Shown here one piece after another: positions 1,805 to 5,032 of a stretch of 10,354 bases of DNA. Position numbers and translations under genes: made by a program. A model generated the notes under the pieces. The model worked only from the letters and a program-made list of their open reading frames with translations. It did not search any database and was not told where the DNA came from. Source of the stretch: a virus (Duplodnaviria > Heunggongvirae > Uroviricota > Caudoviricetes). Numbering within the stretch: the stretch's first letter is position 1; each line of letters begins with the position of its first letter. Location: the IMG/VR virus record IMGVR_UViG_2563366849_000004, positions 1 through 10,354 of that record; one strand, written 5' to 3'.

Positions 1805-2842
1805 TTATGCTGTTTGTTTTTTATTCATTCTATAGCTATTAATAGATGCCATGATTCTATGTCTTAGGTTTTCACATGGCTCTTCAATAAGATAGAAGCT
1901 TATAGCTCCAAATCCTACGCATGCAATTATTGATACAATAAAAATAACAACATTGTCATGATTAAATGGTGCGATCCTGAAAAGTATAAGCAAGTGCCAT
2001 AGGTAGATTGAAAAACTCCACTTTCCTAAGTACGTCATCACTTTAGACTGCATTAACCATCCAAAGACCCCCTTCCCATAGCACAGCAGGTAAACCATAA
2101 TCGCTAGTAGTGGCGCGAAGTACACAAATTTATTTGTAATCATAAATTTTTCACTGGAACCTAGCACATTCATAAAATATGGTGAAACAGAAAAACATGC
2201 TATCACAGTGAGAATGCAGAATGCGTCTGAGGCAAAAGCATTTATATTTAGTTTATTCATTCTCATGAATAAACATGATATTGCCATACCGCACAGAAAC
2301 ACAGGAATATACCATGTTACTTTCCCGCCAAGGGCAAGATTGGTGTATGGATAGAAATACTGATGTATACAACCTAACAAGATTAGGAATAGAACACCAT
2401 TCAAAGCGCCGAATCTATTCGATATCTTTATTGATACAAATGCAATGACAGGAAGTATGAAATAGAACACATACTCTACAGGTATAGTCCAGAAGTGAGC
2501 GTACGAACCTGAGAATGTTATTATTTTATTTAAAGTATCTTCTTTAAACAATCCCGCCCAATAGTAGACGTATACCGCCAAGAAAAACACAGGCAGAATT
2601 CGCAACGAACGCCCAAGAACGTAGCTTGCCAATGAAGTTAATGAGAACCCAGTCACAAAAAAACGATTTGTAAGCAAGAATGCACTAAGCACAAAGAACA
2701 ACCACACGCCAAATTGGGCCGTTCCTGACAAGCTGGCATTTATACTTGGAAAAAAAAGCCCAGTAGCATGGAGAACTAGCACGTTTAACAGCGCCAGCCC
2801 TCTCACTCCTTCAAGCGTTTTGATTTTATTAGACATGACCAT
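1805..2842 (-). CDS. Acyltransferase-3 family integral membrane O-antigen acetyltransferase (Oac/OafA-like), 345 aa
   Basis: N-terminal KTLEGVRGLALLNVLVLHATG carries the R...H motif typical of the acyltransferase-3 family. The protein is hydrophobic throughout with multiple predicted TM helices. Position just downstream of the tailspike mirrors phage Sf6 (tailspike-oac). The gene is clearly more AT-rich than its neighbours. Start could be the second Met (MSNKIK...). Confidence 0.8.
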   Translation of the reverse strand: MVMSNKIKTLEGVRGLALLNVLVLHATGLFFPSINASLSGTAQFGVWLFFVLSAFLLTNRFFVTGFSLTSLASYVLGRSLRILPVFFLAVYVYYWAGLFKEDTLNKIITFSGSYAHFWTIPVEYVFYFILPVIAFVSIKISNRFGALNGVLFLILLGCIHQYFYPYTNLALGGKVTWYIPVFLCGMAISCLFMRMNKLNINAFASDAFCILTVIACFSVSPYFMNVLGSSEKFMITNKFVYFAPLLAIMVYLLCYGKGVFGWLMQSKVMTYLGKWSFSIYLWHLLILFRIAPFNHDNVVIFIVSIIACVGFGAISFYLIEEPCENLRHRIMASINSYRMNKKQTA

Positions 2843-2914
2843 TCACAGAAATTTTCAAAGAGAATAATCATACCCAATAAACACCATATAAGACTAGCCT
2901 TCCATGGCTAATTC

Positions 2915-5032
2915 TTACTTCGTTGCAGTCGTGAAGGTGTTGTAAGTGATTGTTCCGGTTCCGCTGTTTACAATATTCGCAGCCGCAATGAAGGGTTCGT
3001 GGCAGGTTATGCTTGTAGCGCCAGATGTTTCAATGGCTTTCGTTACTGTTCTAATGTTGTTGCAACTGGTTCTCAGTGAGGCTCCTCCTGCTGCAGCTAT
3101 CCCTACACCTGCTGTATCTGAACTGTCCGTGGAGCAGTTTGTTGCATAAAGAATTGTGCCTCCATTGAAATAGATGGCTGGTCTTGCTGCGGACATTAAA
3201 GCCTGATGTGTCGAAATTGTTGCTCTTGTGCATGTCCCAAAATATGAGCCACAAAGCGCTGCTGCTAATGGCGCTTCTTCATTCCCGGTTGTTACCAGGT
3301 TCACAACATTGAAAGCCTTGCACAGTGACCCTGAACCTTGTGCCTTATTGCTGCTTATCACATGGTGAGATCCTCCATTATGAACAAGGCAAGCATCAAC
3401 TATGCAGTCATAAAACACGTTGCCTTCATCAACAAGGTTGTTGCAGTTGAAGAAGTTGGCGCCATAGCTTACGGCATCTGACACTGCTGACAGCGTCATG
3501 GTGTCGCCCATCGCACGGTGTTCATTTCCTTTATATATTACATCCTGGTAATACTGAATTGCCGGTCCTCTTGCTCTCCCTGAGAACTTGTTGTTTGTAA
3601 AAGATACGGATAATCTCTTTGCGAAATCAACCGCAGACCCGCGCATTGTAACCAGCTCTAATGTCGCGCCGGTTGCTCTGGAATCGTTTCCAATCACGCA
3701 TTTATCAACATATATCTCGCGATGACTCGCCTGTAAATAAAGCTCATATGTGTTGTTATTGCGAATTGTACTGTTAGTGACCCACATGCTGATGACATAT
3801 CCATTGTCGTCTGTGTGAATCCCGCGTTGATTTGCTGCTACGTAGCAGTTATCTATATAGACTCGCCTGGCTCCGGAGTTGTGAATGTGGATTCCAGCGT
3901 ATAGGTTGTTAGTTAAGTAACAGTATCTAACGAAGCAATTATCGGCATATGACCATATAGCGTTCCCGGTAGCATCGAAAGCGCAATAAAGATAGTTACC
4001 TGAACTATCAGCTCCTGATACTGATTTCTGGCCTGTAGCAACATCGATTTGTATATGAGCAAGTGTTGACGCACTATCAGCATACACGCGTTCTATAACG
4101 CAGTTTTTTGTCCCTGTAGCGTCTACAGTATGAAGGTAACAGTATTCAGTGCGCACATTTTGGATGAGTATATTTCGGCACTTTGGAAGTCCGATTCCGT
4201 TACCCCTCAAATACCCTGTTGCAAGTCTCAGGTTTTTGATTATTACGTTATCAGAATAGTCTGTATCATTCCCTTGGGCGTAATACTTACCAAGAAGGAA
4301 AGACGCCTCGTCTGCAGTCTCGGGGCAGTCCCATATAATCCTGGCACCTTGAAAATCAAAAATAAGATTTGAGCCGAAAAGAAGGGAATAGGTTAATCGA
4401 TACGATTTATAAGGTGTAAATTTTATCACACCTCCACCTGCCAACTCTGCAGCGTTAATAGCTGCCTGGATTGCTGCGGTATCTGATGTTCCTGATATTA
4501 CATTACCTGGTGTGCCAGTTCCTGTAATCACTCCATCACCTACCGCGCCATAGCTATCTACATGATAAATACCATCGTTTACATTATTGATTTTGGATAG
4601 GCTAGTATTTATTGATTCAATAACCTGCTCAAGGTTCTGATCTCCATAACCGATAAGCGACGCACCATCAGGACCAGCCAAATCCTGTCTAAGTTGGTCG
4701 GGATCGTATTTCAGCACGTTCGGATAATAAAACTGCAGGGAACCATAAGCATCATAAACAGCCATGGAGTGACCCTGCACCGTCACAAATTTGGCAATGT
4801 TACCGTTATAAACTGGGTATCCACCTGCGTTCACAACTATCGGCTGAGGAACTGGAATGTGACTTCCATCCTCATTTTCAAGATATACCTGAACTTGGTT
4901 TGATGGGATTGTGGGGTCAGTATCAATCTGACCAATATAGATTTTACCGTTTGCCACGGCTTTGAAAGAGCGAGCCATTGTGAAGATCTGGCTCGGCATC
5001 GATACTACGACATTGGCAGTGATATCTGACAT
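2915..5032 (-). CDS. Tailspike protein with P22/Sf6/HK620-type head-binding N-terminal domain and a beta-helix (pectate-lyase-like) receptor-binding domain, 705 aa
   Basis: N-terminus [40 protein letters not shown]...[15 protein letters not shown]...NVLKYDPDQ closely matches the P22 gp9 / HK620 / Sf6 tailspike head-binding domain (recalled from memory). The central region has [22 protein letters not shown] and is N/G-rich, typical of right-handed beta-helix glycanases. SD AGGAG lies 8 nt upstream of the ATG. Confidence 0.9.

Follow-up and report, generated by a model that had tools for sequence, protein, structure and literature searches.

Why should a chromosomal island that encodes no virion carry a complete phage tailspike next to an enzyme that putatively modifies the tailspike's receptor? 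The question is posed by a stretch of 10,354 nucleotides (the window, meaning the whole of the DNA analysed), for which a sequence-only reading had offered two answers: either the element is what a deletion left of a P22-like phage, with only the serotype-conversion end retained, or it supplies an alternative tailspike to a P22-like helper resident in the same cell. The island adds one more member to the well-known KplE1/CPS-53 class of cryptic prophages and is very probably a deletion remnant of a P22-like (Lederbergvirus, Sf6/HK620-type) prophage. Four things could be observed directly: its anatomy, its junction, the identity of its DNA with that of intact phages, and the repeated occurrence of such remnants. 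The first answer is the one to which they point.

Results

Anatomy of the island

The window is 100% identical to contig L001 of E. coli KTE156, a draft scaffold, and contains no Ns. The whole island measures 10.6 kb (argW-attL-intS ... torI-attR) and is bounded in L001 by yfdC/argW on one side and dsdC on the other, with chromosomal genes ≤300 nt from the att cores at both ends. The 16-nt att core (ATGGTGTCCCCTGCAG) is present twice, at L001 positions 4590 and 15193 (attL and attR). The attR core lies ~70 nt past the window's right end, and argW and the attL core lie just outside the left end, the tRNA-Arg(CCT) being 160 nt away. The placement of intS at attL and torI at attR is that of KplE1/CPS-53 (Table 1), and the DNA of intS is 96-97% identical to that of Sf6 and O104:H4. 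KplE1 shares its recombination module with HK620, Sf6 and CUS-3, and although it lacks CI it still excises (PMC2951348, PMC3509656). Because intS, torI, attL and attR are all intact, the KTE156 island is probably still excisable, like KplE1.

The sequence-only reading had noted that the element carries no virion genes, and no complete capsid, portal, terminase or tail gene was found in the window (ORF list, Pfam, PHROGs). Nor do such genes flank the island in L001, where yfdC/argW and dsdC are found instead, which speaks against the element being simply one end of an ordinary intact prophage, as that reading had allowed. Immunity, replication, lysis and morphogenesis modules are likewise absent from the island (ORFs searched with Pfam, NCBIfam and PHROGs), leaving a fragment of gene 16 as the sole structural relic. 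The right arm consists of standard early-left (PL) accessory genes, with a terminator ahead of them and no promoter; these genes match, in mosaic fashion and at 94-99%, PL regions from many phages of the lambdoid and P22-like kinds, and the intergenic block that precedes them is the present left limit of the retained arm. An ORF at 5827-5997 was considered as kil and rejected, as it corresponds to Sf6 gene 29 (HK97 gp42-like, phrog_1723). The gene 16 remnant and humD had both gone unmentioned in the sequence-only reading.

Table 1. Features of the window and the evidence on which each was assigned
Feature	Position	Strand	Evidence
intS, tyrosine integrase of the KplE1/HK620/Sf6 recombination module	1..1158	+	Pfam Arm-DNA-bind_3, Phage_int_M, Phage_integrase
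humD, pre-processed UmuD'-like subunit, moron gene	1232..1618	-	NCBIfam NF051876 HumD equivalog; phrog_811 UmuD-like
Near-consensus LexA (SOS) box TACTGTATGCATATACAGTA, directly upstream of humD ribosome-binding site	1636..1655	-	Read from sequence
Probable terminator after acyltransferase gene: hairpin AAGCCCAG...CTGGGCTT, then T-rich tail	1761..1797	-	Read from sequence; function inferred
AT3-only membrane acyltransferase, putative O-antigen O-acetyltransferase	1805..2842	-	PF01757 Acyl_transf_3, E=4.8e-22
Tailspike linker and receptor-binding beta-helix domain, residues 114-705	2915..4693	-	91% identity to P0001 residues 127-713
Tailspike head-binding (virion-attachment) domain, residues 1-113	4694..5032	-	PF09008 Head_binding 1-113/113, E=3.1e-63
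Native gene 16-tailspike intergenic spacer, 155 nt	5033..5187	-	Spacing same as in intact prophage L002
3' remnant of P22-type gene 16 (ejection/DNA-transfer protein), last 55 codons and stop	5188..5355	-	Identical to L002 9678-9845
Deletion junction: 4-bp microhomology CATA common to gene 16 and PL-operon sequence	5352..5355		Three-way alignment of window, L002 and L003
PL-operon intergenic block with tL2-like terminator (5491-5508)	5356..5580	+	95.8% identity to Sf6 bsq4/tL2A region; terminator scan
Promoter-less distal PL genes: cIII-like, HK97 gp42-like, erf, ssb-like, abc2, phrog_614, phrog_3126, ead/Ea22, DUF551, Lar-like	5581..10153	+	Pfam, NCBIfam, PHROGs
torI (excisionase/RDF)	10154..10354	+	96-99.8% DNA identity to torI/xis of O104:H4, Sf6 and L019

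Tailspike

The tailspike ORF (2915-5032, minus strand; protein WP_001572907.1) follows an AGGAG ribosome-binding site and runs from ATG to TAA over 705 aa with no truncation, encoding the full head-binding domain and a beta-helix domain; the description of it as intact and full-length is thus correct. In a PDB sequence search, residues 1-122 aligned to Sf6 gp14 (7sg7, E=1.7e-58), and the N-terminal domains of P22 gp9 and the HK620 tailspike matched too. Pfam Beta_helix covers residues 260-411 (E=1e-9), and the AlphaFold (AF2) model shows a confident beta-helix, all beta in structure, over residues ~150-700 (pLDDT ~90). Comparison of the receptor domain with known tailspikes, which the sequence-only reading had called for, was productive in part: Foldseek with the model returned the tailspikes of HK620, Sf6, P22 and CBA120 as remote structural matches (prob 1.0, but 10-22% identity), whereas neither this search nor that of PDB sequences found a close solved or characterised relative. 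As the domain has only generic beta-helix matches, its glycan specificity could not be assigned. Protein P0001 carries a different N-terminal adaptor ahead of a receptor domain 91% identical to this one.

By its head-binding domain, its beta-helix and the position of its gene, the tailspike is of the P22-like (Lederbergvirus) type; in the intact sibling prophages L002, L017 and L019 the tailspike is likewise the last gene of the late operon, directly after a gp16-type ejection gene. A simple consensus scan found no minus-strand promoter-like site upstream of the tailspike, the 155-nt spacer included. Since the sole known source of its transcription (the late promoter and Q-type antiterminator) has been lost, the tailspike in the remnant is predicted to be silent passenger DNA.

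Acyltransferase and HumD

The acyltransferase-3 gene reported beside the tailspike is borne out by its Pfam match and by a match to phrog_3333 'O-acetyltransferase' (E=8e-37). Translation starting at the 2842 ATG gives 345 aa; gene callers choose the ATG at 2836 instead, for a product of 343 aa. PF01757, a family of domains with ~10 TM helices, spans residues 9-312 and is the only domain; with no SGNH domain, the protein belongs to the AT3-only class. Signatures of AT3 proteins are R/K-X10-H in TMH1, FFXISG and RXXR (PMC7448272). In alignment with Sf6 Oac, the first and third appear as R14-X10-H25 and R78-S-L-R81, and FFXISG reads FFVLSA, with G replaced by A. No NCBIfam equivalog matched the acyltransferase. 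Its family and its position between int and the tailspike suggest O-antigen as the substrate.

The humD product (128 aa) begins at the UmuD' cleavage point and scored 218 bits against NF051876 (cutoff 120) over positions 1-128/129. The LexA box consensus is CTGT-N8-ACAG. Like phage P1 HumD and UmuD', the window's putative humD combines a HumD equivalog match with a start at the cleavage point and a LexA box; it differs from P1 HumD in lying on a P22-like prophage. The acyltransferase and the LexA-controlled humD are probably still expressed as host-beneficial morons. Promoter scans gave nothing convincing for the acyltransferase, so that its continued expression, too, is something we infer.

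Deletion junction and intact relatives

The gene 16 remnant lies 155 nt upstream of the tailspike and is fused at CATA to the early-left operon just upstream of cIII. The chimeric 68-aa ORF formed at the junction matches the C-terminus of the P22 gp16 family (phrog_770 DNA transfer protein, 607-666/668, E=9e-21). In related viral contigs, homology to the window ends at 5355, yet continues into gene 16 of L002. Treatment of the junction as a mosaic boundary was dropped; PL homology must begin where the window's PL-derived DNA begins. An exact 30-mer across the junction had no matches in viral or JGI metagenome contigs, but this negative carries little weight because a 30-mer taken from the spacer between gene 16 and the tailspike, used on the viral collection, returned only relatives at 81-85%.

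The exact tailspike protein is also encoded by L002, an intact P22-like prophage at argW with genes for portal, coat, gp4, gp10, gp26, gp14, gp7, gp20 and gp16. Window positions 286-5355 are 100% identical to L002 DNA, the identity ending inside gene 16, and eight substitutions clustered in intS (57-285) hint at a recombination patch. The exact acyltransferase was found in 23 contigs; among the contexts shown, the KTE156-type is the only one without virion genes, all others being intact P22-like prophages at argW or excised phage forms (tailspike-oac-humD-int-attP-xis). The right arm is Erf-type and mosaic relative to the best intact proxy, L019, which is RecT-type. A search with the window's 181-aa PL protein, aimed at the other half of the intact prophage in sample ERR3061940, did not return that sample but found a different, RecT-type prophage. 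Complete E. coli genomes and phage records, searched by megablast with the window and with 1159-5977, contained no record with the receptor domain, acyltransferase or humD block. The identity to L002 over 286-5355, together with the intact prophages at the same site, marks the element as a very recent internal-deletion derivative, and intactness of the tailspike ORF is therefore uninformative about selection: too little time has passed since the deletion for decay or for divergence from the phage copy.

Comparison with known elements

The island and KplE1/CPS-53 of E. coli K-12 share the argW site between yfdC and dsdC, the intS ... torI module and the att core. They are of the same size class (10.2 kb in K-12, ~10.6 kb here), carry O-antigen-modifying genes directly after intS, followed by receptor-binding-protein DNA, and lack immunity, replication, lysis and morphogenesis modules (PMC2951348, PMC3509656). 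The sequence-only reading had drawn this parallel correctly, the order in K-12 being intS-gtrABS-tail-fibre pseudogenes ... torI. The cargo differs, with gtrABS and tail-fibre pseudogenes in K-12 as against an AT3 acetyltransferase, humD and an intact P22-type tailspike here, and so do the junction and right arm (yfdM-T in K-12, Erf/Abc2/Ead here).

Phage Sf6 has the gene order of the window (xis-attP-int-oac-tailspike-gp16 homologue, the last being gene 13), int and xis of ~96% DNA identity, a highly similar tailspike N-terminal domain, and an AT3-only acetyltransferase between int and tailspike. Unlike the island, Sf6 is a complete phage and has no humD, and the two receptor domains are unrelated in sequence. 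Sf6 oac is transcribed with int and convergently to the tailspike, whereas the window's acyltransferase follows the tailspike on the same strand, opposite to int. The Sf6-like pairing of receptor-degrading and receptor-modifying enzymes that had been proposed therefore stands as to its logic and gene order, but the acyltransferase shares only 22% identity with Sf6 Oac and is encoded on the other strand relative to int.

Remnants at argW in O104:H4, CEA212U and cM2a have the same plan: intS-acyltransferase-tailspike on the left, distal PL genes and torI on the right, no virion genes, and a length of 8-11 kb. Their junctions differ, lying at IS1 (O104:H4), at ISEc52 (CEA212U) and in gene N (cM2a), in contrast to the CATA microhomology in KTE156. 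The acyltransferases also vary (AT3-SGNH of 636 aa, a 111-aa acyltransferase, AT3 of 399 aa), as do the tailspikes, which are a protein N-terminally truncated by loss of the head-binding domain to IS1 (O104:H4), a full CUS-3-type endosialidase (CEA212U) and a fragment (cM2a).

Phage satellites (P4-like, PICI, cf-PICI) resemble the island in being small integrated elements with an integrase, an AlpA/TorI-type excisionase and intact att sites. The island differs in lacking replication, helper-sensing, capsid-remodelling and packaging genes, and in bearing a deletion scar in the form of a truncated structural gene of helper type. No replication module of its own (primase/helicase, ori) was detected (ORFs by Pfam, NCBIfam and PHROGs; precomputed Pfam annotations), and no helper-responsive switch or packaging or capsid-redirecting gene was found in the island.

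Discussion

The proposal that the element is a deletion remnant keeping the serotype-conversion end of its parent is strongly supported by the truncated gene 16 at the junction, by the identical DNA of intact siblings at the same att site and by the several independent remnants. A single internal deletion in a P22-like prophage at argW, of roughly 28 kb by analogy with Sf6, would have fused gene 16, at codon ~604, with early-left operon sequence immediately ahead of cIII; the fusion point is the 4-bp microhomology. Because the attP of this phage family is situated between xis and int, the left end of the prophage reads attL-intS-(conversion genes)-tailspike-gene 16..., and any central deletion automatically places tailspike and O-antigen-modifying gene next to the integrase. 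The parental tailspike would dock on the tail hub by its N-terminal domain and use the beta-helix to bind, and presumably cleave, host O-antigen; in the lysogen, the AT3 enzyme would acetylate the O-antigen, resulting in seroconversion and shutting out other phages that depend on this receptor. With the late promoter and Q-type antiterminator lost, the tailspike of the remnant would have become unexpressed, and the acyltransferase and humD would have been kept on as morons. In view of the mosaicism of the right arm relative to L019, the history could conceivably have been more complex and have included, for example, recombination with a remnant already resident at the site.

The more striking proposal was host-range piracy, in which a P22-like phage, whether co-resident or superinfecting, would receive the island's tailspike in trans on its tail hub and form retargeted virions. 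P22 tailspikes can join spike-less heads after assembly, which makes such trans-assembly biochemically possible; moreover, the ORF is uninterrupted, its head-binding domain is complete and identical to the one found in active phages, and the att sites, intS and torI are intact as well. We nevertheless consider piracy very improbable, and found no positive evidence for it. The tailspike has no upstream promoter, the late promoter/antiterminator region is deleted, its upstream neighbour is a truncated gene 16, and every ORF in the island is an ordinary P22-like PL gene rather than a satellite-type gene for replication, helper sensing or packaging. Zero divergence from the phage copy deprives the intact ORF of meaning as a sign of selection, the O104:H4 remnant had its head-binding domain cut off by IS1, and the absence of the junction 30-mer from viral and metagenome collections adds weak evidence in the same direction. 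There is correspondingly little chance that KTE156 harbours an excisable 'spike donor', in which read-through or phage-driven transcription would place the tailspike on a helper's tail hub and yield virions with a second host range. Many of these points bear equally on the idea that the host has domesticated the tailspike as a soluble O-antigen-trimming enzyme, for instance against competitors or for the removal of receptors. At least two argW remnants (KTE156 and CEA212U) do have an intact tailspike ORF, but with no promoter, no secretion or lysis function, no divergence from the phage copy and truncated copies in other remnants, a free depolymerase is hardly credible.

It is also extremely improbable that the deletion is an assembly artefact or that the island is just an end of some ordinary intact prophage. 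The sequence does come from a draft scaffold, and the five contigs with the same arrangement are possibly re-assemblies of one isolate; however, the arrangement does recur in all five, chromosomal genes flank both ends close to the att cores, no Ns are present, and a 4-bp microhomology is not a repeat that could collapse in assembly. A further possibility, compatible with origin by deletion, is that the remnant serves as a genetic reservoir, donating its cassette of receptor domain, acetyltransferase and humD to incoming P22-like phages by homologous recombination, with conserved head-binding/gene 16 sequence at one flank and intS at the opposite flank. Defective prophages are a known source of DNA for temperate phages (PMC3945230), and the cassette does appear to be mobile: an unrelated prophage near ompW/trp, which encodes a tape measure, ends in DNA 90% identical to window positions 1230-4569, the tailspike linker being the swap point, and other P22-like prophages combine the same intS-humD-oac block with three different receptor domains (breakpoints at window 2970 or 3010). 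On the other hand, no recombinant traceable to the KTE156 remnant was found, intact sibling phages are equally possible donors, and such donation would be an evolutionary side-effect that need not be a selected function. We therefore regard a reservoir role as fairly unlikely.

Recognition of the island as a recent deletion remnant has corrective value, in that an intact tailspike that looks purposeful is a geometric consequence of the attP position in Sf6/HK620-type phages and of a very recent central deletion. The island also provides a natural, datable case of the first step in prophage domestication, with zero substitutions over 5 kb relative to a circulating phage and a junction resolved to 4 bp. 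The receptor domain, O-antigen acetyltransferase and humD move together between a podovirus and a long-tailed prophage, and the association of one acetyltransferase with three receptor domains in P22-like phages offers raw material on the co-evolution of receptor-degrading and receptor-modifying enzymes. In K-12, the GtrABS retained by CPS-53 is active and blocks O-antigen-dependent phages (PMC11990801); by analogy, the acetyltransferase retained in KTE156 may shape the phage susceptibility and serotype of its host.

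The argW island

A 3.2-Mb contig of E. coli KTE156 (GCA_000351965.1) contains the whole window at 100% identity; in that contig tRNA-Arg(CCT) (argW) and yfdC lie immediately left of intS, and dsdC immediately right of torI. The same contig has a 16-nt core (ATGGTGTCCCCTGCAG) at the 3' end of argW and a second copy past torI. Given these flanks and the core at both ends, the 10,354 bp are essentially an entire island of ~10.6 kb of the KplE1/CPS-53 type, a known class of argW cryptic prophages. The sequence-only reading had described an element free of virion genes, and no complete virion gene was found within the island or adjoining it in the source contig. 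That reading had also placed gtrABS and tail-fibre genes at this position in K-12; both are seen in CPS-53, the tail-fibre genes as pseudogenes. CPS-53 shares site, ends and size with the KTE156 island but carries this cargo of its own after intS. Intact copies of intS, torI and the two att cores make excision of the KTE156 island plausible, by analogy with KplE1, which excises (PMC2951348). NCBI annotation already names the phage tailspike protein, acyltransferase and HumD.

Features of the KTE156 argW island (PL, early-left operon)
Feature	Position	Strand	Remark
intS	1-1158	+	
humD, 128-aa S24-fold gene	1232-1618	-	HumD equivalog
Acyl_transf_3 gene	1805-2842	-	
Tailspike gene, 705 aa	2915-5032	-	
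Short chimeric ORF, 68 aa	5188-5394	-	Spans deletion junction
PL genes, left to right: cIII-like, HK97 gp42-like, erf, ssb-like, abc2, two unknowns, ead/Ea22, DUF551, Lar-like		+	
torI	10154-10354		

At 10119-10134, 20 nt upstream of torI, 16 nt of the argW T-arm are repeated exactly (GGAATCGAACCTGCAA, minus strand). Its position is kept in Sf6, K-12 CPS-53, E. coli O104:H4 and free-phage contigs, and it overlaps an Sf6 region annotated as possible promoter pI.

A recent deletion in a P22-like prophage

The chimeric ORF, which gene callers left uncalled, has its stop codon 155 nt upstream of the ATG of the tailspike gene. Gene 16 and the tailspike gene are spaced by precisely this distance in L002, an intact P22-like prophage that occupies the same site in its chromosome and encodes an identical tailspike protein. 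The L002 alignment covers window 1-5355 and stops within gene 16, of which the last 55 codons and stop are retained; this piece aligns with the C-terminal end of the P22 gp16 'DNA transfer protein' family (phrog_770 positions 607-666 of 668, E=9e-21). The first ~13 codons of the ORF are antisense of PL-region DNA, and from 5352 on the window matches PL-region DNA found in many lambdoid and P22-like phages, beginning a short way upstream of a tL2-like terminator and cIII. The two homologies overlap at CATA (5352-5355), which identifies the joint as an illegitimate-recombination junction at 4-bp microhomology. In distantly related viral contigs, too, homology to the window ends at 5355, yet extends into L002 gene 16. 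Judging from the Sf6 map (xis-attP-int-oac-tailspike-gene 13, the last a gp16 homologue), ~28 kb would have been lost: the remainder of gene 16, every head and tail gene, terminase and lysis, as well as the late regulator, replication, cro/cI, PL and N. The gene 16 stub, the CATA junction and intact siblings with identical DNA bear out the earlier suggestion of a deletion remnant of a P22-like phage.

The exact 343-aa acyltransferase is encoded on 23 contigs. The contexts listed include intact argW P22-like prophages with tailspikes of 705 aa (L017, L021), 695/696 aa (L016, L018, L023) or 710 aa (L020), and three contigs (L019, L022, L024) in the excised or virion arrangement tailspike-oac-humD-int-attP-xis. 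Among those listed, only the KTE156 context is without virion genes; its five remnant-type contigs may be re-assemblies of a single isolate. All 8 substitutions relative to L002 fall in intS 57-285, with none over 286-5355 (5,070 nt). Their clustering points to a patch acquired by recombination in the arm-binding part of intS, perhaps from an element resident earlier. The KTE156 and L002 strains share an identical prophage left arm although they diverge by 1.3-1.6% in their chromosomal flanks, which suggests recent lysogeny of divergent E. coli lineages by one and the same phage. L019, a phage-form contig, matches the left arm at 99.9% identity and the torI arm at 99.8%. By these comparisons the parent appears to be a circulating phage and the deletion recent. 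With near-zero divergence from phage copies, the intact tailspike ORF reflects too little time for decay, and is no evidence of selection.

The tailspike and exchange of its receptor domain

The sequence-only description of 1805-5032, an intact tailspike beside an acyltransferase-3 gene, was correct. The tailspike has a complete head-binding domain (PF09008, 1-113/113, E=3e-63) and a beta-helix region in Pfam; residues 1-122 align with Sf6 gp14 (E=2e-58), and residues ~150-700 form a confident beta-helix in the AlphaFold model. The proposed search of the receptor domain against known tailspikes gave generic beta-helix matches at 10-22% identity (HK620, Sf6, P22 and CBA120 spikes, and AlgE epimerases), and no close solved or characterised relative by PDB sequence search or Foldseek.

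From the canonical YDPDQL linker on, the tailspike is 91% identical to proteins with another N-terminal adaptor, PF18668, in place of the P22 head-binding domain. Genes for these spikes lie at the end of an unrelated prophage with a tape-measure gene, near ompW/trp, and the genes after them encode the same 343-aa acyltransferase and a 129-aa HumD. In DNA, window 1230-4569 and L009 8488-11831, a 3.3-kb block of terminal genes of that prophage, are 90% identical. Such identity alongside a different adaptor indicates that receptor domain, acetyltransferase and humD travelled as a single block between phage morphotypes. An identical intS-humD-acetyltransferase block is joined to three other receptor domains (41-50% identical) in the P22-like prophages with 695/696- and 710-aa tailspikes (L016, L018, L020, L023). 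There, window homology ends at 2970 or 3010, which puts the receptor-swap breakpoints in the final ~20-30 codons of the tailspike gene, 55-95 nt before its stop.

Acyltransferase and humD

The acyltransferase is an AT3-only protein (PF01757, E=5e-22; phrog_3333 'O-acetyltransferase') whose Oac-type motifs (R-X10-H, RXXR and an FFVLSA version of FFXISG) align with those of Sf6 Oac at an overall identity of just 22%. A hairpin terminator lies 3' of the gene; a scan for its promoter identified none. By analogy with Sf6 Oac and with the GtrABS of K-12 CPS-53, which retains activity and blocks phages dependent on the O-antigen (PMC11990801), the likeliest retained function of the left arm would be O-antigen acetylation, leading to seroconversion and phage exclusion.

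The humD product scored 218 bits against a HumD equivalog cutoff of 120, and corresponds to a pre-processed UmuD'. A near-consensus LexA box (TACTGTATGCATATACAGTA, 1636-1655, minus strand) lies directly upstream. humD thus appears to be an SOS-regulated mutagenesis moron of a P22-like prophage, with int on one side and the acetyltransferase on the other, and like the acetyltransferase it is probably still functional. Many Enterobacter species and Escherichia marmotae also contribute 128-aa members to the 90%-identity protein cluster of HumD.

Fate of the tailspike

The sequence-only reading had also raised the possibility that the island lends its intact tailspike to a co-resident P22-like helper. 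The tailspike gene is the last of the late operon in this phage type, and the island has lost the late promoter and antiterminator region. No sigma-70-like minus-strand promoter was found in the 155-nt spacer, the gene 16 stub or the antisense of the PL genes; a weak match comes no closer than 3 kb to the tailspike, and a terminator-like site intervenes. Nor did Pfam, NCBIfam and PHROGs reveal satellite-type replication, helper-sensing or packaging functions in the island. The plus-strand PL genes, for their part, have lost PL and N and start after a terminator. Over 1100-10354, sigma-70 consensus matches were far below shuffled controls (4 vs 11.3 expected; 1 vs 9.3).

Sibling argW remnants bear on this question as well. 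CEA212U has a full-length CUS-3-type endosialidase tailspike, and cM2a a 441-aa ORF without a domain. In the O104:H4 remnant (L004 9368-11795), IS1 cuts the head-binding domain at residue 90; with IS1 immediately upstream, the 570-aa 'phage tailspike protein' annotated in the outbreak lineage begins only at the position equivalent to that residue. It is evidently a 5'-truncated relic, and adjoins an AT3-SGNH acyltransferase. Tailspikes in every state among independent remnants fit neutrally decaying passenger DNA and do not suggest retention of a virion-competent spike. The supply of tailspikes to a helper is unsupported, and we regard it as very improbable. That the remnant might serve as a recombinational reservoir is plausible (PMC3945230), although such a role would not be novel. 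The value of the KTE156 island is modest, and lies in a cleanly resolved, very recent deletion together with evidence of cassette exchange.
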